This document shows, in pieces, positions 3,001 to 46,767 of a stretch of 64,000 bases of DNA. Position numbers and translations under genes: made by a program. Within the stretch, counting starts at the first letter, position 1, and every line of letters begins with the position of its first letter. A model generated the notes under the pieces. That model was given only the letters and a program-made list of their open reading frames with translations, did no database searches and was not told the DNA's origin. This DNA is from Marsupella aquatica (Eukaryota; Plantae; Marchantiophyta). The stretch is from contig OZ316895.1 in the NCBI GenBank assembly GCA_973895155.1, positions 20,040,803 to 20,104,802 on the forward strand. Direction: 5' to 3'.

Positions 3001-3819
3001 AGGGAGAGAGTGGAAACCCCACAAGCGAGGAAAGAGGAAGGGCGAAAGTGTGGGAATCCCTTCCTCTTGGGGAAAGATGTGGGAGTCCCTTCCTTGATGT
3101 GAGGAAGGGGAAATGGGAAAAAATGTGGGGATCCCTTTCTCCTTGGTGTGAGTAAGAGGAAGGGGAAAAAAAATGTGCCCCCACAAAGTGTGAAAGTGGG
3201 AAATGGAACACAAATGTGGGAATGCCTTACTTCTTAGGCCATACCACAAACATTACTACTAGGCCGCCTAGTTTTGCACAGACACTCAAATTTCTTGGGA
3301 TAATACTGTTTGATGTAGACCTGAACTCAACCAGGAGACCTTGATTCTGCATGGGGCTTGTTGAGGGCCTCAAAATGGACCCAAACATGACCTGGGACAT
3401 GACCATGTTTGGAGTGACACTAGCGGAGAAAAGCTTGTTCTAAGTTCCAACATTTTCTATTTTTCAACCATTTTTCCCATTTTCTGTCTCATGGGACACC
3501 TCTGGCCAGACACCACCCAAGCCTTCAATTGCTTGGGACCCTCAGTGGCTCCAATGCCACCCTGGGTAGACCAAATTCCTCTCTCAACTCCATTTCCCAG
3601 TTGTGGTATCAACTTATTAGAGCTAACACAAAAAAACTCAAAAAAATCCAGTTACTTCCAACACATGCATTTGTCTTTCAGCTTTCATGTACACAATTAT
3701 AATTCAGTACTAAGTTACTACCAGGTTTTAGTAAAAGGTGACCCTGTCACACTTGGTCCCCTCTTTATATGACAGGGTTTTAATTATTTGGTATGGATTT
3801 GATCATGATATATGCCATA

Positions 3820-10284: not shown

Positions 10285-12233
10285 TCATCCACGGTGACAA
10301 TCTTGACTAAGAACCTTCAACGCCACCTGATTGCTACTCGTGTCCAGGACCAAGTCGCAAGCAATGTTGCTTCTGTATAGCGGCCGAACAATCTTCCATA
10401 TCACATACGCCTCCGACTGCACCCGTACGTGTAACTGTAGTGGTAGTCCGTCCCCCGAGCTGAAGGTGCTCAAGAGATTTGGCCCGGCTCCATAAACGGG
10501 CGTCCTCGTCGCATGCACATCAACAGATCTGGTCCCCGTGCTCCTTTTCTTCTGAAAAAATTTCGGAGACTGCATTGCCAAACAAAACAGAATGCCAATC
10601 AGGCTCTCGAAATCAAGATTTCCAGGTCAGTACAATGCGACCTGATGAGACAGAGAAAATGACAAAGGTGTATGGCCCAGTCTAGAAGGAAGTCTTGCCT
10701 GTCCTGCGGCAACAACGATCTGCTGGTATAACAGCGTCACGTCCGGGGCAGAGACGTGGAACCCGAAGTACTTGGACGGGTTGGCAAAAGTGAGAGTTGT
10801 CGTGAGATTTGCGGTCAGCACCTGAGTGGGCACTCCAGTGGGATCATTCCCTTCATCAATTGAAATCGTCTGGAAATTGATGCTCTGCACAGGTCACAAA
10901 TGTAATCGATAAGCTCCAAAAGATCAATTGCGCCAAAAATGTGGCAAATGGGGTAGTCCTCGAGAAAACGGCCCCCTTTTCATCGATGATGTGATGTCAC
11001 AAAATGCTGACTAAAAGCTCCAACCTGGGTGACCTGTACTACCCGCGCAGAGAAGCGTTGACAATAAGCTTGAGGTGAAGGACACTTTTCACTTTGCTTT
11101 CAAAACCCTCATTGTCGTTTCGGATTGAGTTCGGATTGAGTTGTGATTACGGACCGAATTCCGGAACACCTCTTGCAGAAATGGATTGTCGACAAAAAGC
11201 CAGACCAACGTTACAACCGAACGACCACTGTGGCCCAGGAACTCACTAAGAGACGACCATATAAATGGCCTTAGTAAAGACACAGGACAAGATTTTCCAG
11301 AGACAACACACACAACTAGATATTAGACAAGAAACCGATGAGAAAGGATAGCAGAAACTCATTCGCGCTAAGTCAACCACTTACGACGCAACAGAGAGAG
11401 GCATTTTCCAACCAGGGAAATGATGTAAACCAATAAGATTGACTAATGAGTTCCATGCGGAAGGGGGGCCGACAAAAAAGTTGTAGAAACATTCAAGTAA
11501 ATAAATCGAACGTGAGAGTGGTCGGAGGTGTCACCTTGACTTGAATTTTCGGTGGAGAAGGGCGAACCACGAGCCAGTAGACAAACCCAATAATGACGAT
11601 GCAAAGAATGGCGAAGAAGATCGACAGCAACAGAGCACACCACCTCGAAATGCCCCTTCTTCCAGTGCTCCCATATGGACGGCTCTCTTCCTCCTCCTGA
11701 ATAGTCCCACCATTCCAAGGCTGGTATCCCTTCTTGTGAGGAATTGTGGCGGCTGTGGGAGCAACGGCAGCAGCCACATTGTTGGCATTGCTGGGCTGTG
11801 GAATCACTCTGCGTGAACCAAATGGCCTGGGGTTCGCGTAGAAAGCCTGCTGCTGCTGCTGCTGATGCTGATGTTGATACTGATGCTGATGTTGATACTG
11901 GTGCTGGTGTGGTTTGGAAGCGAAGGTCTTGTGGAGAGGAGAAGCCAATGGGCTAGCAGGGGGGGTAGACTTTGCAGCGAAAGATTGAGACAAAGAGTCA
12001 CCTTCATTGAAACTGAAGGAGTCTCGAGAAGGAGACTGAACGTAGTATGTCGGCCGAACAGCACGATCACCATGTCCAGCATTAGAGCCCTGAGCTGCGC
12101 CGCCAACCTGGTAGCTTACCAACTGAGTGCTCACCAGCTGAGACGCCCTGGGAGATAGGGGAGGAGTGGTGTAAACACTGGTCTCGGAATCAAAAGAGTG
12201 CCCCATCCTCCCATATCTGGCCGGCCGCGACAT
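10285..12233 (-). CDS. Companion of cellulose synthase (CC1/CC2-like) LEA_2-domain type II membrane protein, about 389 aa; exons 12233-11535, 10884-10699, 10569-10285
   Basis: CC-family motifs DSETS, RPTYYVQSPSRDS and W..IQEEE, a TM helix (CALLLSIFFAILCIVIIGFVYWLVV), then LEA_2 motifs PKIQVKSINF..GNDPTGVPT..FGFHV..KFFQ..PVYGAG. Exons join in phase 0 via AAG|GT..CAG and CAG|GC..CAG. Confidence 0.88.
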
Positions 12234-13099
12234 GACTTCTGCCTTTCAGTGAATCCCGTCTACTGCAGTGGCTACAAAGGCTTAGGCTTTCCCCAGCAGC
12301 CACCAAATCTGGATAAAATCTCTGCGTATCCCGACCTTGAAGTTTAAAACGGCAACCAATCTCGGGTTACCGTTACTGATGTATTGCAATCTTAGCACCG
12401 CCCTGAGAATCCCGAACAATATTTGAGGACCCAACGACCCAAAAATGTGAATGCCAAGCGCTAAGACCACAAAAGCTTAACCATCGCGTGCCTTTTGACA
12501 GCCTTTCTTTCCCCTCGAAGACAAGGAAGACAACCCATACAAACAGATGAGATAATGACACTGAAAGTGTCCCAAAGTTGTTCACCGTTTCTCAACTCCC
12601 AACTCTTCTCCGCCGCCGCTACTCACGTGTTACACTCTCCACTGTTGTCAACATTGCAGCATTCCCCCTCCCAGCAGAACAACGGAAAAGTCGTCCCTCG
12701 AGTTCTCAACCGCACCTGTATTGCAAACAGCCAGTCGGGTGGGTAAAGCGAGGCAACTCAGGGGCTCGAAAAGCATTCAGCACAGAAGTCATGTTCGCTC
12801 AATCTTTGGCTGCTTTGTCGGCTTATCGCCACTCTACAGCAAAACGAAGTGTTCAAAAGGTTGGTCGTTCCTCCTTCAAAAAACAGTTGAGAGCAATCTA
12901 ATGCTCACTCGCTCGCAAGGGGACACTTACCCAAAAACTACAGGGTACGCACAGCATACCGGAGCAACACTCCTCCACTGGACCCCCGGGAAAACAAACA
13001 AACCAACTCCGAAGGCAGCTGAGCTTGACAGGCTCCTAAAACCTCTTTGTGCTTCACGGTACACCCTTCTCTCTATCTATCTGGCTCTCTTTCTCTCTC

Positions 13100-22976: not shown

Positions 22977-25697
22977 TCAGATTTTTTCAGTCGATTAGGA
23001 ACTCCATAGAACTTGCTTCAAGCAAAGCGAACAGCGGATGATTTCCTCTTCAAAGCGGAGCTATTGGAAGAAGATCTGCTGGCCCTGCCATTAGTGAAGA
23101 AACCATGCTGAAGCATTGATCCTCCAGATGAACAATCTGACCTTGGGGAAAGTCCACACTCCCCACACTTTCCTCCAACGTTCCTCCAATTCGTCTGTGG
23201 AGCCCTCTATGTCCACCTTTTGTCGAGTTTGGAGAATCTAGATCCGACACAGAGGAAGGAGTGGCCCAAACCTTGTTGGGATGGGACCAGCCATAGTTTT
23301 TCTTGTGCCAATCCCACTTCCAACTCGAGCACTGGTGCAGAGCCAGACCACCTTGAATCCTGCACCTCGAGATAGAGTCGTGAAACTGGCTAAATTCGTA
23401 ATGCCGATTTGTCTGGTGCTACGAATTTGGTTGTTCAGTTGTTCTTTCTCGATCCATTGGTTGTTGTCACCACTTAAGTCAGTGATTGACTTAATTCTCC
23501 TGTTGGCAAGGTATCTTCGGAGTTTGACCTGTTGCTCCATGAGATATCCTTATCTCTGAGATATAGTAGAGTTTGCTCAATGCTAAGGTGCAGCGGGAGT
23601 TGACTCCCTTCAAACTGGAAATTGAGCCTAAACACTACACCCGATGTTTATGGCAAAAAATAATGAATTATGAATTTGACAGTCCATAATTTTTCTATCC
23701 CTGACCTTATAAAATTATCCATCAAATTTTGTGAAAGTCCAGGAAGGTCGGAAGATTAGAAAGAAGCCTAACTGGAGTCCGATGTATAGGCTGAGTAGTA
23801 ATAGGTATGATAGGAGTTTTAGGAGCAGGTGCACTATTTTTGAACCTAGTGGTTAATCTGGTCCTCCTGGCCAATTACTGATTTTTTTTCTCTGTTTGCT
23901 CGGGCTTTCGGGCTCGTGGCCTTTGGGCTCCTTCTCGGGGCGGCCGCTGTTGCCCCGGGTGTTGGTCTGGGTTCCATCCCCTCCTACTTTTAAAATTAAA
24001 AAAATGGTCCATCATATTTGATATTTGAATCTTTGAGACCCCCATTTTCCAAGTGGGCTTCCTTTTCGTGAAGCTGCCCGGTCCCCGACTGCCCGCACCA
24101 TGAAGGGGTGGCGGTTCTGACAGAATCACACAACTGTAGCAGTTTGTACCGGTATCGGTCTTTGTTCCCAGATCACGGTGAATACGGTAGACTACGGCAC
24201 TGTGCCAGCAGTAACTTCTCTGGATACGGATTACGGAAGGAAACGGAACGAGACTGTTCCCATCTTTTTGTCATTCTCAAGGGGCGGGCAGTACCGTAAC
24301 GGGTCTGGCGTAAATACTTCGAACGGCTTGGTGGTGAAACATTTAAATTGTTACTGTTCACCAGTTCTGTATACATTATCCAATGTACTTATTACGTACC
24401 AAATTTCTAGCACAGAAGTCAATGAACGAAGGCTAAATAGGGTGTACTATCCTGCTTCGTGCAGTAAAATGGCGAAATATTAATTACTTTTATTCCAGGA
24501 AACAGCATACTGCCAAAATAGTAGAAAGCATTACGTGCTCGAATGGACCACCCAGATGAACCTTGAAACCTGGATAGACCAGGTTACTGTTGACGAGAAT
24601 GCGTGGAGCTTTTTGAAAGAAAATTTACTATATGAGTACACAATGAGTCCCCTAGTCTATGATTGTAAACTAATATGATACTCAAATAGAATATTTTATT
24701 GAATAATCTAGGATTTCTGCTGTCCATCTGGGATTTGCTTGTCCATCCAGGTCATCTTGTCAAACATTTAGGTCCATGGGGGCTTCAGTTTTCTAGAATA
24801 TCATTCTCCTTATTTACTTATTCTATTATGAAACGATTGTGCATAGGGAAGGATTTGGGAGGGATTATGCACAAACTATAGGGATTTGATGATATAATGC
24901 ATAAACTATAGGGAGGGATTTGCACAATCGTTTCATAATGCACAATCGTTTCATAATCCTTTCAGTTAGAGTACCTTTCACAGCTGAGCAACCTTTTCAC
25001 ATCTTAATGCGCCTCACTATATTCTCTATGTGATTTCAGGGCATTCATTGAGAATGTATTGTCAAGATTTGGGTGTCATTATGAAAATTCTCCTATACTT
25101 TTACAAAAAACAGGACAAACAAACAAAAACTTAAGCCTTTAAGTGTACTAAGGTGCTCTTACCTGAGCACTATGGCCCACAATAGCCTCTCATATATACC
25201 TAGCCCCTCAGGTAGTTTTCTATTTTTATTTCTATGGATGGTTTGGAGCCATAACCCTATGCCCCAGCCTGGCCAAGAGGTTATGACATTTTGACCCCCT
25301 CGCTAACCCACCCGGAGGTTATATAATTTCAAACACAAAGTTTTAATAAAAATAGAGCAAAGCTACACTCAGGGCTGTGCTTGTGAACCCATGACTACCC
25401 AAAGGGCATGCCTTCACTCCCTAGGGGATTATATCCCACAAGCCTAGCCTGACTACCTGTTCTTTGATCATAAATATAGGTGACTACAAAAAACCATGCA
25501 CTACTTTTTCTAAATTATTGACATTCATTTATGATTTGTCCCTGTTTCTTGTACCCCAAAGTTAAGTGAAGCAGGCCTACTTATGGTCAAGAGGCTTCAC
25601 TCTAGACCTAGACCATAAAAGAAATAGGTTTATATCCCAAATTACTACATTTAACTCTCACTAAGTGCGGGCTCTTGGGAAGACAGATCCGGCATGC

Positions 25698-25873
25698 TGT
25701 CGTGACATATAGTATCGTAGTCATAGTGTATCAAAAACATACAAGTTACCGGCAAGGCATATGTGCAAGCTGCTAGCAACCAACATGCATAGAAAAAGTC
25801 CAATCACATTCACAAGTGCCAAGAAAAAGCAAATGAAGTGGTATGTACGTAGTGGAGGTGTAAACCTCTGTAT
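25698..25873 (-). repeat. Repeat A, terminal copy (176 bp)
   Basis: Matches 26235-26410 with 4 substitutions by eye count. Confidence 0.95.
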
Positions 25874-26232
25874 ATAAAAGGCGTAAGAAAAACAATTGTA
25901 TTGAAATCAAATCAAAAACCGGCAGGATGCCAAGATCGGCCGGGAGCATCTAACGAATCACTGTGTGAATCCCGTGTACGGAACCGACGAGCACTGTCTG
26001 AGCTCTGTCAACAGCGATTCAAGAAGAACTGAAAAACCCACAAAGAAATACATGCCCTAAGCAAGCAAAGTCCTGGCATCACACTAACAAGCACATTTGC
26101 TTCAAGAATGGCCCAGACTTGCTACAAGAACATGTCGCTAACTCAGGTAGTACACTAGCCCTAACTACATACCTAGCGGGCAGGCAAGGGACATGCCGAT
26201 GTGCATAAGAGACACTGTCCCTCGGCATGACA
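25874..26232 (-). repeat. Repeat B, 3' copy (359 bp)
   Basis: Matches 35158-35516 with about 11 substitutions by eye count. Confidence 0.95.
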
Positions 26233-26234
26233 GC

Positions 26235-26410
26235 TATCGTGACATATAGTATCGTAGCCATAGTGTATCAAAAACATACAAGTCACCGGCAAGGCATATG
26301 TGCAAGCTGCTAGCAACCAAAATGCATAGAAAAAGTCCAATCACATTCACAAGTGCCAAGAAAAAGCAAATGAAGTGGTATGTACGTAGTGGAGGTGTAA
26401 ACCTCTGTAT
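26235..26410 (-). repeat. Repeat A, inner copy (176 bp)
   Basis: Direct repeat of 25698-25873, separated from B by GC at 26233-34. Confidence 0.95.
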
Positions 26411-26418
26411 CCCCCCCC
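26411..26418 (-). other. Putative polypurine tract (G8) for plus-strand priming
   Basis: C8 on the + strand directly abuts the inner A repeat, about 30 nt after the integrase stop codon. Confidence 0.6.
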
Positions 26419-26450
26419 AGACCACAGCCACAAGGAGGGCTGAAGAAAAT

Positions 26451-27770
26451 TCAGGTAGCACGTGGAGCACAAGAAGGGCAAAACCATAACCCTTCTGGCA
26501 CCTGGGTAAGTTCAGGCCAAAGGCAGAAAAGATGGTACCCTCCATTGCAATTGTCACACAGCAGCATCTGGTCAGCATCATCAATTCGCAAACACACCTT
26601 GCAAGGGTAGTCCACAGGTGGAATCCAAGTAGAAGTCACAATGGTGGGATCTAGGTTAGGCAGATGACAAGGGGCGCAATTCTTGGCATTGTCAGCAATT
26701 GTGCGCCCATCTGCCCCTTGTAACTCTAGCACTCCAGACGGTCGAATAGCTTTAACCCTGAGAATAGTTCGACTGGTAGAGGTGTCCAGGGTGTCGTTAG
26801 CTTGCCGCTGCAAGTACACAAAATCTCCCACATCAAACTTCCTGACCTTGGGCTGAAAAGTGCCCCCTCGTGTGTGTGCATAACGCAGTGTGTCCCTGTG
26901 CTGTGCAATGGCCAAATTCTCCATGGCCATGGGCATAACCCTCCTGAATAGGGCAGCCCTCTCAGAGATCACATCAGACCAAGTCACAGCTGAATCCAAG
27001 TCCACCACCTGAAGCATGTGAGCAGCAATAGCAGAAGGTGGAACTGGGTGACGACCAAACAACAAGAAGTAGGGAGAAAAGTTAGACAGTGATGCATGTC
27101 TGGACATCCTATACCCCATGGCAATGTAGGGTAAGGCCAGGTCCCAATCCTCCTTGTTTTTGGTGAGGCAGATCTTTCGGAGACCCTTCTTGCATGTCTA
27201 AACCATGCGCTCTGCCAAGCCATCTGCCTGTGGGTGATCTCGTGATGTCCGGCGATGATCAATGAGGGCCTGATCAAGTAGCTCCTGGAACTCTCCTCTA
27301 AACTCTGAGCCCTGGTCAGTGAGACATTCTGCACAAGCTCCAAAGCGGCTGAGAACTTGTTGTAGGAATGTCTGGCTGGTGCTACGGGAGGTCTTATCCG
27401 GCAATGCCACAAGTTCTATCCACTTGGAGAAATGCTCTATCATGATCATGATGTAGAGATTACCCTGAGATGTGAGGGGTAATTCTCCAGCCAAATCACA
27501 TGACCAGCGATAAAACATGCCCTGAATAGGGAGTGGATGAAGTGTGGGTTGCCGAGATATGAAAGAAGTCCTCACCCTATCACACTGTTCACACCGGGCA
27601 ATAACATCTCGAACCTGGCCATGCATGCCTCTCCAATGATAATGAGGGACCAAGAGGCTGTAAGTCCTCTTAACGCCAAAATGACCAAGCTCAGAATGTA
27701 CCTTACGGATAAGGCCAACCCTCTCATGAATGGGTGGAACCACCACTTCCCTGTCTGGCAAGCAGCGCAC
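26451..27770 (-). pseudogene. Integrase (HHCC Zn finger, DDE core, SH3-like region, C-terminal PHD finger) with one in-frame TAG at 27198-27200
   Basis: HSELGH..CEQC; SCDLAG, TDQGSEF and AERMV provide D,D,E; reading continues in frame ERMV*TCKKGLRK. PHD C4HC3: CKVC..LLCDNC..YHLFC..WFCPSC (26469-26603). Confidence 0.93.
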
Positions 27771-27785
27771 GAGATGATCTCCCTT

Positions 27786-29330
27786 TCACAAGTAGCGCTT
27801 GGACCTTTGCTGAATTTGGTCTCTCTGGGCAGTAGTAACATGTGTGGGTAACTCCCCATGCTGCAGAAATCTCAGAGTGTCGCTGTCCTCCCATATGTCC
27901 ACCACAGGTTGGTCAACAACATAGCATGGCAGCAAAGCAAGATAGGTCGATGCATGAAATGTAGGCAAGATGGAAACCTGGTCAAAATCTTGCCGTGCAT
28001 CTGAGGAATCATCAGAGGTAATCAAAGGGCTGCGGGACATAGTGTCAGCATTCTGATGTGTCACACCAGGCCTATGAGTTACCTCAAAATCATACTCCTG
28101 GAGTATGAGCGCCCAACGAGCAAGCTTGCCAGTAAGCTTGTCGTTGGTCATCAACCACTTCAAGGGCTGGTGGTCGGTGTAGAGAACAAACCTGGTCCCA
28201 TAGAGGTAGGGCCTATAATGTATGACAGCCCACACAACAGCAAGGCATTCACCCTCATAAGAAGAATAATGACTCTCTGCCTGATTGTTGCTCCTGGATG
28301 CATAGGCAATGACGTACTCTTTACCTTCCTCATCATGCTGGCCCAAAATGGCACCAATCCCAAGGGCACTCCAATCTGTGTGTAGCACAAAGACCTTGTT
28401 GAAATCAGGTCTTCTCAGCACCGGGTATTCTGAGAGCTTCTCCTTCAAAGTGGCAAATGCTGCCTCAGCATCTGTACTCCATGTCCAAGTCACATTCTTT
28501 TTCAACAAAGCATACAATGGGTGTGCAATGGTACTGAAATCTTTGATGTAGATCCAGTAGTAATTGCACAACCCAATAAAACTCCTCAAAGTGCGAACAT
28601 CGATAGGAGTGGGCATTTCCAAGATGGATACCACCTTGGCCCAGTGAGCCATGGTTCCATTTGGAAGAATGCGGTGCCCAAGGTATACTACTGATCTGAC
28701 AGCAAATTCACACTTCTTGGGGTGTATCTTTAGGTTCACCTTCTTAAGCCTCATGAATAGCTCCTCAAGGTCAAGTAGATGCTGGTCAAATCCTTTGCTG
28801 TGGACCAACACATCATCAATGTAGCGTTTCAGAAACTCAGCACCTTGAAGAACCTGGTCCATGACTCTTTGAAAGAATATGGGCGCATTCTTCAAGCCAA
28901 ATGGCATCACCAACCACTCCCATAGTTGGTTACTACCATGGAAAGCTATTTTCTTGCGGTCCTTTGCAAGCAGCAAAATCTGGTTAAAGCCTTGCCTTAG
29001 ATCCACAAGAGTGAAGATGTCTGAGTCTCCAATGCTGTCAAATAGCTCCTCTGGCCGTGGCATGGGGTACCTGTCCTGGGGTGTGACCAGGTTCAGTGGC
29101 CTGTAGTCCCCACACATGCGCTTCTCTGTCCACAATCCACTGGAATCCTTCTTTGCTGGCATCACTGTAGCTGCTGCAAAATCTGATGTAGATGGCTGAA
29201 TAAGACCAGCTTCATAGAGCTCTTGGCATCTCTCATCCACTAGCTGTCACTCATGCTTACTCAAACGGTGTCTCCGCCTGAAGATAGGTGTTTCATCAGC
29301 CAACTCAATGGAGAACTGCATAGTCTTGCA
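27786..29330 (-). pseudogene. Reverse transcriptase plus RNase H of the gypsy pol, with in-frame TGA codons at 29247 and 27786
   Basis: RMCGDYRPLN, DLRQGFNQI, MPFGLKNAP, YIDD; RNase H motifs TDWS..GAIL, YEGECLAVVWA, TDHQPL, NADTMSR. Both stops lie in conserved in-frame context (HE*QLVDE, RYL*KGDHL). Confidence 0.95.
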
Positions 29331-29784
29331 CTTACCCAAGTCCTTCATAGAGAAAGCAAACACATTCTCATGCTTGAGGAGCAAATTCAGCAGCTGGTCC
29401 TTCTGTCTTTTACTCAGGTGGTTGCCCATGATGAATGTGTAGTTGGCAACACTAGGAATAGGACCTGATGTACTCGTGCTTGAAGAGCCAGAAGTGCCAG
29501 CCTCTCCACTGTCCAAGCTACTAGCATGCTGCTGATAAGGTGATGAGGCCTCTCCAAGGCCTGCTGTATCTGTTGCTCTGGTCTGATCCACACCATGAAA
29601 CTCAGAAATAATGTCAGCCACATTACAAGGGACCTCCTCCCCCCTAACACTTGGACTGAAGTGGTGAGTGTTGGACAGAGGTAAGTGCACCTGGTCTGGA
29701 TGCCATGTAGCAGCACCATGGAGTGGTAGGGCTGGCACTCCTGATGCTGGATGAATGTACATCTGAAAAAGGATGCAAGTGACC

Positions 29785-30725
29785 AGAAGCCAAGTGAGAG
29801 CATTAAGATCCATTACCTTGCCAAGTAAAGCAGTCCTGGCTAGCCTGGTGATTTTGGTGTGACCTGTAGTACCGGGTTGGAAGCCCATAGCCCGTTCTCT
29901 CTCCTCAGGACTAGGTTCATCCCATGTACCGATAGAATGTCGATAAACCAGGCCAGAACCATCACCCTGAAAAGCATGTGCACCTGGAAAGGACACAAAA
30001 GTAGGCCAAGCAGCACGGGGCTGTCCAATGGTATTAGCTGGATACCAAGGTGCTGGCTCTTGCCGTGTAACCGGTTGGCAAGAACTGTCAGGATCCAAAA
30101 TCTGGTCCACTGTGAGGTTAGTGTCCCTAGATGTGTGGTGAAGAGCTAACTCCAACAAGGAAGGTGGTGCAATGTTAGTCCAAAAGTTACGAAGACGATG
30201 TGCATAAGAACCACAGTGCATTGCATCAATGAGAAGGGGTGGTCCCAAGTAGTGTTGGACCACACTGAAATCCTCTTTGACCTGTGGACGCTGGTCAAAC
30301 TGAGATGGAGTATTCTCAATGATATAACCAACAGCAGGATAAAGGGATTGAGCCCAGGTGAGAATCTGAACCAATGCTGTGAAAAGGCCAGAACGAGAAT
30401 CATGCAGTCCAGCACCGTGACCAGCAGCTGAAAACCCTTGGCATTCCCAACCAGCTATGATCAAATCAAGGGAGCCAAGAAGGGTTAAGTGCCAGTGCTG
30501 GACAAGCTGGATGTCTGGAGGGAAGAAAGAAAATGCAGACTTCCATGCACTATGTGGAAACTGCTGGGGAAATCGCTCGGAAAATTCCAGCAGACGGGAT
30601 TCAGCCACTTGCCTTGCACTTGGATCAATGTCCACGTAGATGTACTGCTTCACCACCATGCCAGACTGTAGGAGAGCTTCCAGGCCTGTAGAAATGCCAC
30701 CAAAAAGCTCAATCAATGTAAGGCC
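29785..30725 (-). CDS. DNMT3-like C5 cytosine DNA methyltransferase domain embedded in pol between protease and RT
   Basis: Ordered motifs I (ELFGGISTG), II (YVDID), III (DIQ), IV (DLIIAGWECQGFS), VI (IIENT), VIII (AHRLRNFWTN), IX (EERERAMGF) and X (RLARTALLGK). No stop or frameshift within the domain. Confidence 0.92.
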
Positions 30726-31079
30726 ATCTAAAAGAGGAGTCCATTTAACTGGTGCGCTCAAGATTGGGGCTATTGGCTGTCCATTGTGCTGCCCAAGGTC
30801 TTCAAACTTGCGCAATGCAGCCACCAAAGGTCCATGGGCTGCTTGGAGCTGTTGTACCACCTCTGGTTGATGATCCACGTTGCTGGAAAGTGCTGCTATA
30901 CGTGCAGCAGCATGTGCAGCAGCCACCTCATCGTCATCCTCCTCAATCCAATCTTGCAATGGGTGGTTGACATAGGTAGCTGTGTGCACTGCTTTCAACA
31001 CACAGTGGTGAGCCATAGGTATATGGGCACCATGCAAATCAAGTGGAATGTAGCCCAAGTGTGAGCCATCAGTATGCCA

Positions 31080-31430
31080 ATCAACTCTGTAGTATGCATG
31101 CTCATGCCAGTTGTCAATGGTAAAACCTGGTGGGAACAAAGCCTCCTGGCCAATGAGCACATCATACGTAGTGGCATTGGTAACCAAACATCTGACTGGG
31201 AAATGCAGTTCCTGATCTGTACCTCCATTAAAAGTGAGAGTGAGTAAAGTAGAACTCTCACCCAGCACATCCTCCACAGTGCCACTAGCAGCCCGAATGT
31301 GCCACTTGGATTGCTGTAAATGATCAGTCAACAGTCCCATCTTCTTGGCAAACTGAATGCCCAATATCACTGGTTGAGCACCTGTGTCTAGCATGACCAC
31401 CTGAGGAGTGTGACCCTCCAACTTGACCAC
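31080..31430 (-). CDS. Retropepsin-like aspartic protease domain (part of ORF 31985-29247)
   Basis: VMLDTGAQPVIL active site, IRAASG flap region and YDVLIGQEAL. Confidence 0.85.
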
Positions 31431-32039
31431 TGAATTCCTGTTGTCAACAATGGCAATGGTGGTGGAAACTGAAGTCCTGTCAATAGGCACCACTCTCGGC
31501 AAATGATGAGGTACCTTGTGAAGGGAGTTAGTGTCCACGGTCTTTCCACTCAACAACATAGCCAGGAAAGATGGAGCAGCATGACCAGAATCAAGTGTAG
31601 CTCTGGTCACACAATCAGCAGCAATCGGTATTGGGGCAGCCAAACCAGTGGAAACATGTAAAGGAGAAGAAAAAGGTCCAGTATGTACATGAGATTGGAC
31701 CTCCAAAACCGGTGTCACAGGGGTTGATGAAGAATGCAGTGAGCCCTCTAGCGCTCTAATGATAGCTCTAGCATCCAGCTGTAAATCATGGCAACTGAAA
31801 AGTGGAGTTGTAAGAATCCTTTGTGCCATACCGGAGGTGAAATGCTCAAGCAGCTCAGGAGAAACAACTCCCTGTGAAATGTTAGCAGCACCTGGTGGTG
31901 GAATGGATGTAGCTGCAGCTCCCTCCCCCCTCGCCAACAAGGTGCGCTCTTCAGCAAGTGTGAGTGGCTGAAAAGATTGGGGCATGACAGCCCGAGCGCC
32001 CCTGGCTCTAGTCAGAGGACCGGCAGCAAGACCATCAGC

Positions 32040-33581
32040 CTATACAATGCGGCGTGTGGGAGCAATACGGGAGGCAGCACTGGCCTGCTGGTAAGCAAAA
32101 CAGGAAGGGCAGAATGAATCTGAAAATTCTGCTGTAAGGCCAGGCTGTGGAGCAGAGGACAGCACACACTCACCCATATGAGCATCAAATGGTAAGCCAT
32201 AGAAAGAGCGGGGTAGAGGTGCTGAACTGTCAGCGGTGCCTGGGCCAGGGATGGGTTGCACGTGACCAGCCGGTTGAGAAGGACCAGCAGAGGCAGTGGA
32301 CTTGCCTTTGATGTTGGCAAGTTGGGCACGTAAGGACTCAACCTCATGAGTCAGAGACTGGAGTTGAGTTGCCTGTGCGTTATGAGCCTCCTTCTGAGCT
32401 GGTTGCTTCTGTGGCTGCTTGGGCAATTTGTTAGCACCGGGTGCTTTGCCACTGGAAGGAGGAGCAATGGATGTAGTAGGAGCCCTCCTAGCTGGGGGGG
32501 GAGTGGAAGCAGGAGCAGGATGAGGGGCCTGCTGTCGTAGCCGCTTCCGCTCTGGGAATTTGGCAAAACAAACTGCCTCCAAGTGACCCACTTTCCCGCA
32601 AAAATCACAAGACAGGTCCTCAGCAACAATATCACACTCATTAGCCTTATGATTGGGGTTACCACAGTAGTTGCAAGATGGCAGCATGAAAGCAGCATGG
32701 GCTGGCTTGGTCTTGGAACCATACTGTGGCACACGAGAAGGAGTGGCCAGTGTAGGGGTAGCAGCCTGGTACCTGGATTGCGGTGGACGCGCAATATTGG
32801 CCTCATAATGTGCATGGGCCAACTCAAGTTTCTCAGCAGTGTCATAGACATTGAGCAGGGTGTAGCTGTCTCCAAACTCTGAGAATACTTGCTGCAACAC
32901 TTGCGAATGGAGAGCTGGTGTGCCCTCCAATGCGCGAAGATAGCGATGAGCAGCCTCCAGGTCAGTGATGCTCTGGGTGTCCTCCTTCAGCTTGAGAAGC
33001 CGGCGATACATCATCTTCAAGGTTTCATCGCGCTGCCTCACAAAGGTGGCCAACTGCATGATTGTGTCAGCACTCTTGATTGGGAATTCCAATTCAAGAA
33101 CCTGGAAAAACTCAGCCACTGGATCAGCAAAGGCAGGGGAATCAATGGTGGGAGAAATGCCTGATGTAGCCTGTGCCAAGATAGTGGGAGTAACGGGCGC
33201 AGTGGTAGGAACTGGAGTAGGAGGGGAAGTGGCAGGAGCAGCAGCATGGGCTGCAATGGCATTCTGTAAGGCCAATTGTGAGGCTGCCGCAATTGCACTG
33301 GCATAGGTAGGGTTAGGCAACTGTGTGACAGCAAGCAGCCGTTGAGAATGCTGCTCATACACATCCAAAGCCTCATGGTGCACATACCTGGCTAGCTGCT
33401 TAAATGCAAAAGCATTTGTGAAATTGCTGCCGTACTTCAACTCCAATGCGTAAACGATAGTGTAGAAAGTGGATTTGAACTCACGTAAAGAGACAGTGCC
33501 TGGCCGCCCGCTGAAGCGCTCAATGCGGCCAGATGAGTGGTTGGCATCCATGCTGTATGTCGGTGAAGCAGGAACAACCAC
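32040..33581 (-). CDS. Gag with two CCHC zinc knuckles, in frame with pol across a single TAG; may originally have started at ATG 33817 (frameshift near 33600)
   Basis: IERFSG capsid-like start; CNYCGNPNHKANEC and CDFCGKVGHLEAVC knuckles; Pro/Ala-rich linker. After the TAG, 18 sense codons lead in frame to ATG 31985. Confidence 0.85.
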   Translation of the reverse strand: MVVPASPTYSMDANHSSGRIERFSGRPGTVSLREFKSTFYTIVYALELKYGSNFTNAFAFKQLARYVHHEALDVYEQHSQRLLAVTQLPNPTYASAIAAASQLALQNAIAAHAAAPATSPPTPVPTTAPVTPTILAQATSGISPTIDSPAFADPVAEFFQVLELEFPIKSADTIMQLATFVRQRDETLKMMYRRLLKLKEDTQSITDLEAAHRYLRALEGTPALHSQVLQQVFSEFGDSYTLLNVYDTAEKLELAHAHYEANIARPPQSRYQAATPTLATPSRVPQYGSKTKPAHAAFMLPSCNYCGNPNHKANECDIVAEDLSCDFCGKVGHLEAVCFAKFPERKRLRQQAPHPAPASTPPPARRAPTTSIAPPSSGKAPGANKLPKQPQKQPAQKEAHNAQATQLQSLTHEVESLRAQLANIKGKSTASAGPSQPAGHVQPIPGPGTADSSAPLPRSFYGLPFDAHMGECVLSSAPQPGLTAEFSDSFCPSCFAYQQASAASRIAPTRRIV

Positions 33582-34254
33582 GGATGCAGAAGGGGTAAAA
33601 ATGGCAATGAAGTGATAGCAGGCTTCGGGGTAGTGGTGAAGCGACCACCAAATGTAGCAGAAGGATTGCGTGGTGTGGGTGCTGCTGTTGTCTGCTGACG
33701 TTGCTGAAATTTCCGAGACTCCAATGAAATTGGCACCAATGGTCGTGGATCACTCCGTAAATGGTACCTGGGTGTCGGTGGTGATGTGCTGCTACCTCCT
33801 GGCTCGTCTGCTGACATGCTGTGTGGCAGTACCCGATGTACTCAGGTAATGTACAAAATGTATAAACATGTTGAAGAACCGTCAACCTCAAAAATCCGTC
33901 AGAGAAAAAGGACCCTTAAAAACGTGAAGACATTGGGTGCCCACTTAATTAAGTGTATAAACACGGGGCCCCGTTAAGTGTATACGTCGGGCCCCGATGT
34001 GGACCCGGGAACTAGCAAGCTCGACGGAAAAAAGGCCGGGCGCGCGTCGGCAGTGAAATCGTCCTCACGGGAACCGGCCGAGTGTGTAAACACACCCAGG
34101 GCACGGCACCCTATGCACAGCCCAAGGAGGCCCTATGCAGGTCGTTGTGAGGCGGAAGGAAAGACGACGGCCGAAAAGAAAAGAGAGGCGGATTACGAGG
34201 CGGAAAGGAGGCGAGGCGGGAGGCGAGGCAAAAGAAACCTGGCCAAACCGGGCC

Positions 34255-34660
34255 CTCTTAATGGCATGAGCCCTCCATAGGGCTTCGTGCCCCACCTTAT
34301 GTGCTCCCGAAAAGGGGCTACGAACATACTCCCCCCTCCTCTCCTGCAATGCAATTTGGGCCTCGTGCCCTGGCAGAAGACTCCCGTGAGAGGAGTCAAG
34401 TGTACTCCCCCCTCTTCAATGCTGACAGTGGGCTCCGTGCCCTGCAGGGGGACTCCTGAAGAAGGGAGTCGTGTGTGAACTCCCCTCCCCCTCCTTTTAA
34501 TTGCTGCTTAGGGCCTCGTGCCCTCTCCTGCGCTCCTGCCTTGGTTTCGTCTCCCCCTGCTTTAATGCTGCTTCGTGCCCTGCAGGAGACTCCCCCTGCT
34601 TTAATGTGTACTCCCCTCCCCTCCTCTTAATGCGCCATAGGGCCTCGTGCCCTCCATCCT
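34255..34660. repeat. Degenerate tandem repeats in the retroelement 5' leader
   Basis: About 6 copies of GGG(C/T)(C/T)CGTGCCC interspersed with CTCCCCCTC..TTAAT. Confidence 0.65.
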
Positions 34661-35145
34661 CTCTCGCTTATGCTCGGCCACGGCAGGAAGCAAAACGAAG
34701 GAATAGCGAGGCGACGAGGCAAAAAAAAGAGGAGTAAGAAAGGCAGAAAGAAAAGGGGTGTGCGGCCCTATGCCGTTGGGAAGTAGCGCGCAGTGGCCTA
34801 GGCAGTCCGGTGGTGGTCGCGCGGCAGCCGTGGCCGGGAAATGGCCATAAAAGCTAACGAAAAAGGGGCCCCAAACTCCCAAAGGGTTGCGAGTGAGGGC
34901 GCAGCGGCCTGTGCAATCGGCAGCAAGTCGTCGATGTAGGTCACAAAGAAGGTTGCGGCCGGAAAAAAAACCCGGGCCCCTTGTTATTTGTATACACTTA
35001 AGTATACAGTATACACATAACACCACAATAAACCCATAACTTTTAACTCGTCACTCCGATGTCCGTCAAAGAAATTGCAATGGCTTCACCAGAAAGTGTC
35101 GAAATCGTCACAAACAATCTTCTTCCCCTCACCACTATCTCGACG

Positions 35146-35157
35146 AGTTCTTCTTGA
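35146..35157 (-). promoter_or_regulatory. Putative self-priming PBS (Tf1-like), complementary to the predicted transcript 5' end at 35314
   Basis: 35146-35159 AGTTCTTCTTGAAT is a perfect 14-bp inverted repeat of 35301-35314 ATTCAAGAAGAACT and abuts the end of repeat B. No TGG-starting tRNA PBS at this position. Confidence 0.7.
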
Positions 35158-35516
35158 ATAAAAGGCGTAAGAGAAACAATTGTATTGAAATCGAATCGAA
35201 AACCGGCAGGATGCCAAGATCGGCCGGGAGCATCTAACGAATCACTGTGTGAATCCCGTGTATGGAACCGACGAGCACTGTCTGAGCTCTGTCAACAGCG
35301 ATTCAAGAAGAACTGAAAAAACCACAAAGAAAGACATGCCCTAAGCAAGCAAAGTCCTGGCGTCACACTAACAAGCACATTTGCTTCAAGAACGGCCCAG
35401 ACTTGCTACAAGAACATGTCGCTAACTCAGGTAGTACACTAGCCCTAACTACATACCTAGTGGGCAGGCGAGGGACATGCCGATGTGCATAAGAGGCACT
35501 GTCCCTCGGCATGACA
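35158..35516 (-). repeat. Repeat B, 5' terminal copy (359 bp)
   Basis: Direct repeat of 25874-26232; not followed by repeat A. Confidence 0.95.
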
Positions 35517-37748
35517 ATGCACTAAACCAGGTGGTGCGTTCCTTGATAAGTTAGCACACACCCCCTAAAACGTGCACTTATTGATATGGGCTGCTCTATC
35601 AGTGAGTAGCCCCTTACCTCATATCCCTGCCCTCATTCTTTACTCTACTAAGAATGGGTAATCCTGCATTTATTAGTAAAATGCTATTTCATGGCTTTGT
35701 GCTTTTACCCATAAGAGCAGACATACACTTATTGAGGGTAAGCGCTTATGAAGTTGTCTTTTAGGAAAATGATTGAAGCCCTGTGTGCGCTTACAACATA
35801 CGCTTAAAAAGCACTTATCCCGTGTTAGAAAATAGAGTAGGAGAGGATGCCCTGGGCTAATCAAGGGTAAGCGCTTATGGAGTCTGAGCTTAGACAGAGC
35901 CCACTATAGTAAGATAACCCCCTTTGGACCGTGGTTTACATTAATCTAACCCATTCGATGGGTTGGGGTACCTTTCACAACCTGAGGTATGGGATGCTTT
36001 CTGTTCCCTCCACTCCGTTCCTGGTTTAGACAGAGCTCGAGATTGAAACTCCGTGAAATGAGAGCTTGGACAATTCGGGATGCATCAAATTCAAGCAGCG
36101 AATCGTTGAAATTGGAGAGAGAGAGCATGGGAAATTGGAATGGAGATGGAGGCGACAGTTTATGGTTGGGAGGCGCCAGATAGACAGACGGAAACATCAG
36201 TTCGACTACGGAGCTGGGGAATTTTGGTTGTGAGTGATTCTAATGTGCGGCCCGATTGAAGTTTGGAGGTCCTTGAAGAAAGGGTTTCACATACAGGTAC
36301 TAAAATTGGATCATCGTCGAGAATTGCTTGTAGTTGGGAGTGAGCTAGAGGTGCTCCTTTCTTCCCCTTGTGCACCATCATTCTTGAGACCCACAACTGG
36401 ATGACTAGATAGACCCACAGCTGAATGAATAAGTAGTCGAAATTCTGGATGCAGTTTGCAACCACTCGCTCGTCAGCATTGCCGCCCAAGCTTCGTAGTG
36501 TCATTTCTTACTGACCTTGGGTCTGCTGCTGAGCTGAGCTGGTCTTGTTCTCTGAGCTGGTCTTGTTCTCATTGAACTACTTTCATCAGCTGATTTACGG
36601 GCCTCACAAGCCAAAGCCAAATCTATGAATGAATATTTTTCAAGACTTTTATCGCTAGTTGGCTTTCCATCCCCTCGCTTCAATATGAGCACTTCAAGCG
36701 TATGGGCAGAAGATTCTATTTTTCTGCAATGGGTGAGATAGGAAGGACCAATATCTCGAGACCTACCAGATACCATGGGTCGCCCACCCGTGTGGACACT
36801 AAGCCCTCTGGTAGACTGGGGTATGAAGCCCTGAAGTACCCTGTAGTCGGAATTCTCGCTGACGGACTACGATCGTGTCAACAGAAGCTCGAGACAGCTA
36901 TCCCTTGCTTGAACAGACGAAACTGAATGTTTAAGGTTCAATCAAATTCTATGTAAATTGGGTGGTTTTAAAAGTCGTTGACCTTTCGAAAAGTGAGCTT
37001 CTTTGGTGGAATTTTAGTTCCCGAGACAACCGCCCTGGGTAAGAGGCCGAAGTCCAAGATAATCTCTTACTGTACGCACAATCAAACCTAATGATCAGAC
37101 AGGTAGAATGTCCTTCAATCTCGAACACTAGTGGGACCAAAGAATTACTTAGCGCTGTGAACTCTAACTTGTCCTCGTTCTTGAACATGCTGGATAGTGG
37201 GACCACAAACCCTCCTTCTGACTCTAAAAGCGCATAGCTCTGAATTGGGCCAATCTCGCTCTTCATCACCAGTGAGTTATTAATGTTCGGTGAAGTACAG
37301 CGTAAAGTGAAGCGCGGAAGAAATGCTCATCTGTACTTTCGCAAAAGAAGATGGGTTACTAGAGTATCCTTTAGATTTGGTCAGGTTTCAACCAAAGCAA
37401 AGATCTTGCCGTTCTCTCAAAACAAGACTCCGCACGCGTTTAATTGATTTTGAATTTAAAGTACATGATTACGAAAAATCTGAAGGAAAGCTGGTGTACC
37501 AATATGTTTTCATCACCTCTTCAGTTTTTGCAGTTTTTGCAATTTTTGGTTTTGGTTTTGGTTTGGACTGTGTCAATTTTGCTCGAGGAGTACTGCATGG
37601 TTTGGTTGCGGTGAGACAGCAGATTGAGACTGATGCGGTGTAACTCCAACTTTTGTGCACATTGTCAGGACGGAATCGAATTCAGGTGTTGTGGCTCTTT
37701 TTGGTAGTTGGTACGGACCCTGTTCGCCGGATTTCTGAGCCCCTAGTC

Positions 37749-43427: not shown

Positions 43428-46182
43428 CTAGGAGGTTCTCTGCTTAACTCGTCGACCATTCGCATCGGCCCCGTCTGAGAACTGGCCCCATACAATCCTG
43501 TTTCTAGAAAATGAACCAACTTCCTCATCAACGCCTGCAATTGTTCTCAAAAGTTCGGATTGCAGGGATGGACAACTGTCCTTCAAGTACTCAAAGCCGT
43601 CCGATTGCATCACCGCTGTCAGAAGAAACAGAAAGACGATGAGATGTACAATCAAAACACTCGGACTCGGGCCATGTAAATATATGTAACGAGAAGAAAG
43701 AGAGTATCAGATATGGAGACTGAGGCTCACCCGGAAGATTGGAAGCCGCGAATTTCAGGCAAACGGATTTCAACTGCGATGCATGGTGTTGCTCTGCAAG
43801 AGCAAGAGTCGTGGCAACTGTGTCTGTGCTCACGTCTTCACACAACTTCGATTCACACAGCAACCTCAAACGGTCAAGCCCGTATCGATCTGCTGCGGCT
43901 AACAAATGCTGGGCCATGAGTGTAGAAGATGAGGAAGATGACCCCGTGACCTCAGTGGTATCGGGAAGTACGTCTCTGTAGATAAAATGCAACATGGCCT
44001 GCATTCACAGTAGGCATTCCCTCAGAACTGGCCCACAAGGACAATCAAATTGCTCCCAACAATTTGGCTGATAGAGATGGCTGCAGGCTAAGAACAAGAC
44101 TCGGCCACCAGATCTCTGAATTAACCCAAATATATAACCTCAGATACTGCAGGAAGCTTCAATTCATAGATACTGACTGCACAGTTTGCATTTCTTTAGC
44201 GGCATTTCGAATGGTCAGTACTCCAATCAAGGAACATCGTAAACTAGCGCACACATTATGGTAAAACATGAAATCCTAAATACCACAGATGTTCACAACG
44301 AATTAATAGGACGGGTTAATCCGTTGCGCAGCACTCCACATCATGTAGCAATGTTGCGAATAGCACACGACGGAACTGAAGAGCCCAGTCGTGTTACCCA
44401 CGAAATACCAGATACTAGAGATAGATGTCAACAACAAGTGAATTTAACAGATTGGGATGGCTGCTTTTAAGCTGCATTCAGTATAATACGCCACTAACCA
44501 TCAACACATGACGGAAACTCGAGAACACAGCAAGCTACGCATATAAACCCGTTATTTCAGATAGATATCAACAATCAACAAGAGTGATTGAATGACACAA
44601 CTCATTCCGCATGGCATTCACTACGGCGTCCAATACAACGAAAACGCGAGAAAACAGTCAGGTCACAACTGCAATCCATATATCACAGATGAATGTCCAC
44701 AGCCAAACAATTAACTGCATTCAGTATGATAAATCATGTTGCACCAATCAACACACAACGGGAACAGATACCAGTAAATAAACACATACGAACCCAATGA
44801 TGCTGATGTTTGTGTTGTTAAGTACCTTAAATACTGGAGCTTCCATATCTTTTATATGGATCTTGCCGCTATTCCGATCGCGCATTAGCCCAAAGAGTTG
44901 AGCCTTGAAAACAGGAGATCTGGCAGCCAGCACCAGCTTGTGAGCTTGGAAAGTCTCCCCGTCAACTTCAAAAGTCACGTCACCAAAGGTAGCATCACCT
45001 TCGCCGCTATCTAACAACGCACCGAAATGCTGACCCAAATCAGGCTCCGGCACCGAAATAGTATACAACTTCGGACTCTGTGTCGCTGACACAACTACCC
45101 CAACCGTACACGTGATAGACAGGGTGTCATTCTTCAAGAAATCAGATGTCTCTAATACTGCTCGCCGAAAAAAACGCTTATATCCCCTGGATCATGAGAC
45201 ACAGTAAGGACAATCACAAGATTAGAGAACTGCTCGTCTTTCGCCGATAACGGACGTAATCTGCAAATAGTCAGTCGGTAGGGAAGGAAAATGCTCTCCC
45301 CTACATAACGTAAGCTAACATTGAAAAGACGTCTCCGCCGGCAGAGAAAGCAATCCCCCGCAGATAACTCGAATAAGGTCAAAATCTGCACAACTCTTCC
45401 CTTTGGACTCTTCTCTGGCGGCAAGGAAAAATAGAGAGACCAGAAGGCCTGAGACAGAAATAAAACAGTATTGCTTAACTAGTACTCTTCTGCAGATAAT
45501 GGAGGTTGCAAGTAAGTCCTACGGTGAGTAGTGGTGAGAAAACAGTTCCCACAGAAATCAGACTGCATTGCAAAGTCAAGTCCGACGGCAGGGAAGAAAA
45601 TAATCGACAAACTGATCAAACGACAACAAATGTCTACGCCAGTACTTTCTGAAGACTAGAAAGATGATCAGAGAGAGCAGAGGGCCAACAATAACCACCG
45701 CCAACGGAAGCCAATAATGCAGGAACAAGTGCGAGAGTCACGAAAGAGAGAGTCAGATTGGGAGAGGTGCCAACATACCACATGCTACCGCGGTACTTAA
45801 GGGTGTAAGGGCCACTTTCGAGAGAGCGGTCGAAGTGGCTGTGCACCTTGTGCTTGGCCTTGTTGCTCTGATCCAAAAGAGTCAACTCGAAGAGCGCACG
45901 CACGTCCGTGCCCTCGCTCGCAAGTGCAATAAAAACAGAGACATAAAGCGAATTGTCCTCCGCGTTCTTTCCGTCGGGATAGAAGTAGATGGCCCATTGA
46001 TAACCACCCACGGTGAAGCTCTCGCTCGCGATATATTTCCCCACGCCCATCCCCTTCGCGAGAGAATAGCCATTTATTGTGAAATAGTGAGACCCGTTCA
46101 CAGTTTCAGTAACGCTGCGGGACCGAGTTCCTGCTCCCGCGCCCGCACTGCTGTCCTGCAAGGCCATCGGCGTCCGTGCCAT
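43428..46182 (-). CDS. BPM: BTB/POZ-MATH (BPM) CUL3 substrate adaptor; exons 46182-45779, 45186-44826, 43998-43731, 43615-43428
   Basis: MATH: [38 protein letters not shown]|[11 protein letters not shown]: [25 protein letters not shown] and [23 protein letters not shown]-terminus ends GRRVKQR. Confidence 0.96.
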
Positions 46183-46767
46183 GACCTTTCTTCCTTCATC
46201 CCCGCTCTAACTCCATTCCCGTCCCCCTCCCCCCCCCCCCCCTCCCTGTCCTTCCTCTCCCCACGAACCCTACTCTCTTGTCTCTCACTCTCTACCTCTC
46301 TTTTTCTCTTCTCTCCTACTTCGTCGCCCACAACTTCCACCTATGCTTCCTGCACCTCTAATCGCCACAGCCACAGAACACAACGCCTGACCTAATCTCT
46401 AAAAAATCGACCTCCAGTCCCCCGAATTCATTCCGATCGTTCGTGTCACCCTGTTCGTCTACCAATCACCTACTCCATTTCCATTCACCATCAATCCCCC
46501 CCTCCTCCTTATTTTCCGCCACTCCTCCTTGCGTCGTCAATCCCTCATCCCCCTCGTGCTCGATCAATTTGTGATCTCCCTGCTAGCCGATTGATTCTCC
46601 CTATTAGAACTATTGTCCGCTATTCGTCTCCGTGCCTGCCTCGATTGCCTCTCGACGCTTCTTCTGTTTTTCTCCTTCCTGTCCACTGTCTCTCGTCCGT
46701 CTCGTCCACACCCACCCGCTCCGGGTGGAGCAGGAAGGAAGTGTGACTCCTCGACTCGACTCCAATA

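Follow-up and report, generated by a model that had tools for sequence, protein, structure and literature searches.

Contig OZ316895.1 of the liverwort Marsupella aquatica (assembly GCA_973895155.1) carries a Gypsy-type retrotransposon whose long terminal repeat (LTR) sequences, here divided into parts A and B, are arranged in a permuted fashion. The element lies in a stretch of 64,000 nucleotides (nt; positions 20,040,803 to 20,104,802 of the forward strand), hereafter the window; it is read on the minus strand and its coordinates are positions in the window. A unit of 9,819 nt in the order B1, internal region, G8, A1, GC, B2, A2 sits between two copies of the tetranucleotide GCAT and its outer ends read TGTC...GACA. 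The two complete direct LTRs around the internal region by which Ty3/Gypsy elements are recognised are absent. This layout, the TG..CA ends and the duplication (ATGC on the plus strand) had been put forward in an original prediction made from the sequence alone, and all of its coordinates proved exact.

Layout and age of the element

B1 and B2 differ at 11 of 359 sites (96.9% identity) and A1 and A2 at 4 of 176, and the Kimura two-parameter distance of the A and B repeat pairs taken together is 0.029. At the grass substitution rate of 1.3e-8 this gives a rough insertion age of ~1 Myr; dating an element of this kind requires that B be paired with B and A with A. No further copies of A or B were found within the window. 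The joint between B2 and A2 (the B–A joint) reads CCTTTTAT followed directly by ATACAGAG, with an overlap of 0 nt. At the opposite junction, between A1 and B2, the window copy has decayed to TA-GC-TG (A1 ends in GATA), and CA is kept in A2. Contigs of three public runs, one of which may be the window's own source, span the joint between A2 and its flank with 0 differences, which makes an assembly artefact at that end unlikely. The features, all on the minus strand, are as follows:

35517 to 35520, minus: 4-base-pair (bp) target site duplication, 5' copy (GCAT; ATGC on the plus strand)
35158 to 35516, minus: B1, 359 nt, inferred distal unique 3' region (U3), repeat region (R) and unique 5' region (U5), begins TGTCATG
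35303 to 35314, minus: predicted transcript start and 12-nt self-primer (AGTTCTTCTTGA), exact complement of the primer-binding site
35146 to 35157, minus: putative self-priming primer-binding site, adjoining B1, from its complementarity to B
33750 to 35145, minus: 5' leader with short internal repeats; frames of at least 60 amino acids (aa) without a Pfam match
32040 to 33749, minus: gag frame with a weak CCHC knuckle (PF00098, E 0.004, below cut-off) and a stop at its end
31137 to 31427, minus: aspartic protease (PF13975, E 6e-6)
29760 to 30734, minus: Dnmt3-like C5 cytosine methyltransferase domain within pol (PF00145, E 5.8e-6)
27786 to 29246, minus: reverse transcriptase (RT) and RNase H; RT 83% identical to a Calypogeia fissa protein
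26640 to 27785, minus: HHCC zinc finger, DDE integrase core and C-terminal part, with a stop at 27200-27198
26469 to 26603, minus: PHD finger at the integrase C terminus (PF00628, E 2.3e-11)
26411 to 26418, minus: polypurine tract G8; a G-run precedes A in relatives also
26235 to 26410, minus: A1, 176 nt, inferred proximal U3
26233 to 26234, minus: GC spacer between A1 and B2
26226 to 26241, minus: palindromic end-to-end site CACGATA-GC-TGTCATG (A end, GC, B start), inferred integrase substrate
25874 to 26232, minus: B2, 359 nt
25868 to 25879, minus: B–A joint, predicted right and left ends of the complementary DNA (cDNA) joined blunt; varies among relatives
25698 to 25873, minus: A2, 176 nt, terminal CACGACA
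25694 to 25697, minus: 4-bp target site duplication, 3' copy

Coding content

The internal region holds one frame encoding gag, protease, methylase, RT, RNase H, HHCC finger, DDE integrase and PHD finger, interrupted by four in-frame stops (32042, 29249, 27788 and 27200); the window copy is a dead element. In a Pfam search the pol domains follow the Ty3/Gypsy order of protease, RT, RNase H and integrase. The DDE triad is intact (D97, D157 and E192 of the piece at 27785-27201, with 34 residues from the second D to the E) and the best solved relatives of the integrase are Ty3 Gag-Pol (E 4e-14) and foamy virus integrase. No chromodomain was matched at the integrase C terminus, where a PHD finger is found instead. 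None of the 69 frames of at least 60 aa matched a tyrosine recombinase in Pfam, and the 64 remaining frames of this size gave nothing above a Pfam cut-off. The best RT match is the 83% identical protein of the liverwort Calypogeia fissa, and relatives from Marchantia, Closterium and Klebsormidium were also matched.

The best solved relative of the methylase is DNMT3A (E 3.8e-6), the 17 best rows from the Protein Data Bank all being DNMT3A or 3C, and its putative motifs FGG, EC (PC in DNMT3A), EN and RxRxFW align to DNMT3A. The domain lies between protease and RT in the window element and between RNase H and integrase in two distant relatives, the proteins P0145 and P0147, and no methylase match was found in locus L089 and its sister L091; this differing position and presence indicates that the domain moved or was gained more than once. 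Two of the stops recur among aligned related loci (duplicates included): the gag-end stop (32040-32042) in 15 of 43 and the integrase stop (27198-27200) in 10 of 63, which may reflect recurrent decay or a programmed gag stop. The other two are common to 1 of 74 and 1 of 75 related loci.

Relatives share the permuted layout

A scan of metagenome contigs yielded 428 confirmed relatives, of which the best 80 were taken (L001-L080; RT 64-83% identical). Nine loci repeating the insertion of another locus were removed before counting, and four more were left out: L026 because of truncation, L056 and L073 because of rearrangement, and L074 because the contig end cuts it. This family has the same domain order and the same repeat plan as the window element, with different LTR sequences. 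Among distinct relatives 26 finish in A-B-A and 16 in A alone, so that 42 intact 3' ends stop at the end of A, and all 29 of the 5' ends begin at B, none with an A upstream. Both ends are present in 15 distinct copies, 10 of them long (B-internal-A-GC-B-A) and 5 short (B-internal-A), and every complete short copy starts with B alone; this second common form had not been predicted. The mirror form B-A-GC-B-internal-A was seen at 0 of the 29 5' ends (95% upper bound 10%). No solo B-A units occur in 0.97 Mb of loci, a weak negative because the loci were picked by their RT.

Target site duplications of 4 bp flank most of the 15 complete relatives: nine are exact, four have one mismatch, one has two mismatches (AACA/AATG, as CpG decay would give) and one, the short copy L008, is atypical. 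Exact matches of 3 or 5 bp were found in none of them. With the window copy included, the duplication agrees within one mismatch in 14 of 16 cases, against 1.4 on shuffled pairing, and 16 different 4-bp duplications are found among independent insertions that share the layout, which supports the original prediction. L008 (3955-3966 and 13031-13045) shows an imperfect 8-bp duplication, and its 5' flank finishes in AGC, resembling the internal site.

The layout extends beyond these relatives: a member of a third family, L086 (RT 53%), reads polypurine tract (PPT), A, GC, B, A, flank. The window's own family was surveyed in contigs of four public runs, with loose ends counted from the matches listed. 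Mixed loose ends (agreement 0.42-0.56) occur at the start of B in at least 10, 6, 14 and 8 contigs of the four runs, and at the end of A in at least 8 contigs of run X1 and at least 8 plus 3 of run X4; at the intact end of B there were none among the matches listed. Contig depth on A and B ranges from thousands to 280,000, compared to 14-81 on the flank adjoining A2, which shows that the family is high-copy, although contig depth is not usable as copy number. Among the data sets listed as containing the sequence there was none of RNA, a result with no bearing on expression. The permuted layout is a trait of a clade rather than a one-off.

Two further loci, L084 (with a 127-nt terminal overlap) and L089 (permuted), have A-GC-B reading directly into the side of the primer-binding site (PBS); the overlap and the permutation led us to treat them as collapsed assemblies, not as circles or as A-B 5' ends. 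L091 and L092 stop before the 3' repeat, and a GACA-NN-TGTC match in their coding DNA was disregarded. The contigs of L084, L086, L089, L091 and L092 sit in bins labelled as bacterial genomes, likely through binning contamination. Among viral contigs close alignment found no relative, and distant alignment gave three ordinary Gypsy-like loci. Internal inversions that place the element in opposed halves were seen in 4 of 12 dot-plotted loci (L010 at 3417-3802, L049 at 2923, L056 at 7556 and 13298, and L071 at 3009).

A palindrome in the middle of the predicted LTR

Where A meets B across the GC spacer, the consensus of the relatives is CAYGACA-GC-TGTCATG, palindromic at 14 of 16 positions, and the spacer measures 2 nt in every one of 28 relatives. 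The internal CA-GC-TG named in the original prediction is not what the window copy reads; it stands for the clade, since C occupies the position of the T in the window's GATA in 20 of the 28. The same holds for the loss of GC on integration, which can be seen in relatives and is not readable in the window copy because the duplication itself begins with GC. Four families, with RT identities as low as 40%, retain the core GACAGCTGTC: it is present in L084 and L086 (RT 53%) and in L089 (RT 40%), whose LTRs are otherwise unlike those of the window, and L089 has a perfect 16-bp palindrome. GACA-NN-TGTC was found in none of three outgroup Gypsy loci (L081, L087, L090). In L078 CAGC precedes TG.

The 12 nt that follow B1 are the exact complement of positions 203-214 of B. 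Across the 25 relatives and the window copy (n=26) this 12-mer has a mean of 1.4 mismatches to its own B, compared to 4.2 in control DNA, and two compensatory pair changes distinguish the PBS and primer of the window's family from those of L001-L080. Of 25 relatives, 20 have a TATAAA 31-32 nt before the matching site; the window copy has none there. A PBS of the tRNA type was ruled out, there being no TGG after B. Given the PPT before A and the self-priming PBS after B, A-GC-B is the predicted reverse-transcribed LTR at both cDNA ends, with termini AT..AT and no terminal TG..CA, as had been proposed; the TG..CA ends of the integrated unit would then lie back to back within this LTR.

The B–A joint varies from copy to copy

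The B–A joint equals the predicted right end of the cDNA joined to its predicted left end. It is blunt in the window copy, in agreement with the overlap-free junction originally described, and looks like a product of end joining: of 26 relatives, 12 have a blunt joint, 7 have one that is too short by 1-2 nt and 3 one that is too long by 1 nt, while 1 carries an 18-nt insertion and 3 show long deletions. Length changes thus affect 14 of 26 B–A joints, as against 0 of 28 A-GC-B junctions (Fisher P 3e-6) and 1 of 26 junctions between B and the PBS (P 1e-4). Insertions and long deletions without the -1/-2 class still account for 7 of 26 (P 0.004 for A-GC-B and 0.05 for B and the PBS). Long deletions with 3-5 nt of microhomology characterise L021 and L075, L006 has lost 149 nt and L077 carries the 18-nt insertion. 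In the window's family one contig each in X1 and X4 has a 317-nt loss of B that ends at an intact A start. In L056, a single case, the inversion breaks at the exact end of B2 and at a point 15 nt inside A2, the pattern expected of free ends.

The two A copies do not form separate lineages (0.863, 0.857 and 0.860), and private deletions of 18 and 23 nt (L023 and L063) are present in both A copies of each element. Taken together, the B–A joint is likely made anew each time by error-prone end joining.

A proposed route of integration and its alternatives

We consider it probable that this Gypsy clade inserts from the palindrome in the middle of its LTR, the DDE integrase cutting CA-GC-TG in the left repeat and the ends of the cDNA being joined to one another. 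The predicted transcript runs from a start in B1 to an end in B2, and its first 12 nt would likely act as primer at the PBS, in the self-priming manner of Tf1/Tf2. Plus-strand synthesis beginning after G8 would then yield A-GC-B-internal-A-GC-B. If the site were cut in staggered fashion after each CA, both resulting ends would finish in CA-3' and bear GC overhangs of 2 nt, just as ends do after ordinary 3' processing, and strand transfer at a 4-bp stagger would create the duplication with loss of the GC. The end of B would be joined to the start of A either before integration, giving a 2-LTR circle, or after it during gap repair. Short B-internal-A copies may stem from a cut one-LTR intermediate or from later A-by-A recombination.

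The mirror form being absent from the 29 5' ends argues that only the site in the left LTR is in use. Once the second strand transfer has taken place, about 540 nt of synthesis would suffice to make the left LTR double-stranded, with the right LTR waiting ~9 kb, and the left site is likely favoured because it is double-stranded first and would already be fixed by integrase. In its wider form, to which we lean on balance, the proposal is that in a whole Gypsy clade of streptophytes, and probably of algae more widely, the attachment site has shifted from the cDNA ends to a fixed palindrome in the LTR, so that integrase pastes in pre-abutted ends, always those of the left LTR, and the host joins the cDNA ends, possibly after strand transfer.

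Several points weigh against this proposal. All enzymatic steps and the order of events are deduced from dead genomic copies, and the preference for the left site draws on the timing argument given above. The relatives come from short-read assemblies, and their B–A joints were classed by eye; 7 of the 14 imprecise joints (the -1 and -2 classes) lie in an AT-rich stretch and could reflect later slippage. The nearest match to A2 is the element's own A1 in 3 of 19 copies of L001-L080 (7 of 9 for B), which we attribute to the family being old and uniform, and the within-element signal of A is weak (0.889 versus 0.86). L008, a short copy, is without a 4-bp duplication. Finally, mixed loose ends were also found upstream of the A start in the window's family (at least 9, 4 and 4 among the matches listed); these loose ends open with a stretch resembling the G-run of the PPT, and some of them could be ordinary insertions beginning at A.

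Reverse transcriptases of retroelements are able to jump from one template end to another, and the most serious alternative, which we regard as unlikely yet worth keeping in view, has the palindrome cut in the same manner and the B–A joint made by RT jumping from the end of B onto the start of A, on the same cDNA or on a spare strong-stop piece. Extension at the right end only would explain why the mirror form is missing, and joints of 0, -1, -2 and +1 nt could arise from jumps in which the ends overlap slightly or bases are added; the microhomology deletions of L021 and L075, the loss in L006, the insertion in L077 and the inversion in L056 resemble the repair of double-strand ends instead.

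The original prediction envisaged a 2-LTR circle cut inside the LTR. That the integrated ends come from within the LTR is upheld, whereas a circle closed first and then cut at either of two equivalent internal sites is improbable. Such a circle would account for the layout as observed, for the missing GC and for the variation at the B–A joint, and retroviral 2-LTR circles are reported to be able to feed integration (PMC4372172, PMC1180852). It should, however, produce equal numbers of B-A-GC-B-internal-A, which are missing from the 29 5' ends; the five complete A-only copies all begin with B alone, and were the 16 A-only 3' ends derived from the mirror form, what was observed would have a probability of about 1e-6. 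A circle with integrase already fixed on its left site is part of the left-palindrome route that we favour.

Replication of the PAT/TOC1/Ngaro type, in which the RNA spans the unit, A-GC-B templates a circle junction, the B–A joint is inherited and a tyrosine recombinase acts in cis or in trans, is very improbable. The arrangement of the repeats equals that depicted for split-repeat DIRS elements (PMC5890265). Set against this, there is no recombinase match in the 69 frames and the DDE triad is intact, the duplications are of 16 different sequences, the PPT and the predicted self-priming PBS have the positions usual in a conventional LTR element, A2 follows the A1 of the same copy, and the B–A joint varies.

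A one-off rearrangement, a nested solo LTR or an assembly artefact has a negligible probability: short-read assemblies can mis-join repeats, and L084 is such a collapsed loop, but 26 distinct relatives share the 3' layout, complete copies have matching duplications, L086 repeats the layout in a third family and the window's own family has many independent ends.

Other features of the window

A 98-nt inverted repeat (4238-4335 and 5094-5191; 80% complementary, 758 nt apart) may represent the ends of a small DNA transposon. Nested inverted repeats with arms of 42 and 43 nt form a long hairpin-like region at 51315-51665; the 64-kb window, this region included, has no Rfam matches. On the minus strand, 45634-46206 is a host plant gene with a MATH-domain exon (PF22486, E 1e-20), and 11493-12245 is a host plant gene frame with a hydrophobic stretch at its end and no family match above cut-off, presumably of the NHL/LEA2 kind. 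Two further minus-strand frames are without a Pfam match at E 0.01: one of 243 aa (61253-61984), whose 'GLIDGT' stretch we take to recall PIF/Harbinger transposases, and one of 216 aa (55195-55845), whose middle presumably resembles aminoglycoside/choline phosphotransferase-like proteins.

Implications

Retroviruses and LTR retrotransposons are usually held to integrate via the processed ends of a linear cDNA, and the weight in vivo of routes that cleave a junction is an old dispute, early reports having been called unsubstantiated (PMC1180852). If true, the proposed route would be a second, obligate route of integration for LTR retroelements and a natural case in which the cutting of abutted ends is the normal pathway, and its 16-bp substrate lends itself to assays with oligonucleotides. 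It would also link the integrases of retroelements to the paste-in chemistry of IS3/IS30. In practical terms, annotation tools that rely on a pair of LTRs with TG..CA ends overlook this high-copy bryophyte family or set its boundaries wrongly.

Comparison with known systems

The closest described element is KnitGypsy-Dnmt3 of Klebsormidium nitens, for which a figure legend places the repeats in a DIRS-like arrangement and the domains in Gypsy (de Mendoza et al. 2018, PMC5890265). The window element likewise combines a Dnmt3-like domain in a Gypsy pol with DIRS-like split repeats. The layout is not wholly undescribed, given this one sentence; the accessible text gives no ends, duplication, primer site, palindrome, mechanism, PHD finger or land-plant copies, although the supplementary figures may show the ends (PMC5890265). 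Streptophyte Gypsy-DNMT3 elements are mentioned in a 2026 preprint (10.64898/2026.05.21.726589), in the accessible text of which the repeats are not described. Among the papers listed in a search of the openly accessible literature, none was found to describe the palindrome, primer, duplications or route. In a quick tree of the sequences collected here, the element families and the K. nitens retrotransposon protein P0083 fall into a 24-row group (Shimodaira–Hasegawa approximate likelihood ratio test 95) whose inner forks are open. P0083, a possible KnitGypsy-Dnmt3 copy, has 44% RT identity and its record is without a methylase domain. The element is probably a land-plant relative of KnitGypsy-Dnmt3 with a distinct route of integration.

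With Ty3/Gypsy elements (Metaviridae) it shares the order protease, RT, RNase H and integrase, a Ty3-type DDE integrase, TG..CA ends, a 4-bp duplication, the PPT and the PBS. Unlike them it has no pair of complete LTRs, and its TG..CA falls inside a predicted cDNA LTR ending AT..AT. Self-priming PBSs are reported for Tf2 and for the plant element Tcn1 (PMC5341516, PMC6317226), and a self-primed mode of reverse transcription like that of Tf1/Tf2-type elements and Tcn1 is predicted for the window element, which differs from such chromoviruses (Tcn1, Tf1/Sushi) in having a PHD finger in place of the chromodomain. As described, one survey demanded two LTRs with TG/CA ends, so elements of the present kind could not have been listed intact (PMC6317226).

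In PAT, TOC1 and Ngaro the site of abutted ends serves as the substrate of integration, and to our knowledge these elements have no DDE integrase or protease and no variable duplication. The window element resembles them, and SymbioDIRS-Dnmt3, in its split direct repeats, for which the layout A-coding-B-A-B has been described (PMC5890265). It differs in lacking a tyrosine recombinase match and in possessing a DDE integrase, a protease, a PPT and a PBS, and its clade shows variable 4-bp duplications.

The proposed chemistry has its parallels elsewhere. The junction of the insertion sequence (IS) IS30 has a spacer of 2 bp. In the copy-out/paste-in pathway of the IS3, IS30, IS21 and IS256 families the left and right ends abut at a junction, from which a DDE enzyme carries out the insertion (PMC3299598). 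Their junction is made by transposase on a DNA circle, whereas that of the present elements is built permanently into the LTR and is copied with it during reverse transcription. Foamy virus integrase is reported to cut a palindromic LTR-LTR junction, CA-AT-TG, on both strands after CA to leave 2-nt 5' overhangs (PMC1180852), and the palindromic CA-NN-TG site described here, at which cutting is predicted, resembles those of the 2-LTR circles of foamy virus and HIV-1 (PMC1180852, PMC4372172). In those viruses, however, the palindrome is formed by the joint of two LTRs and an ordinary provirus results, whereas in the present elements the palindrome lies in the middle of the LTR, the product is permuted, and the route through the internal palindrome appears to be the sole one in the sampled copies of the clade.

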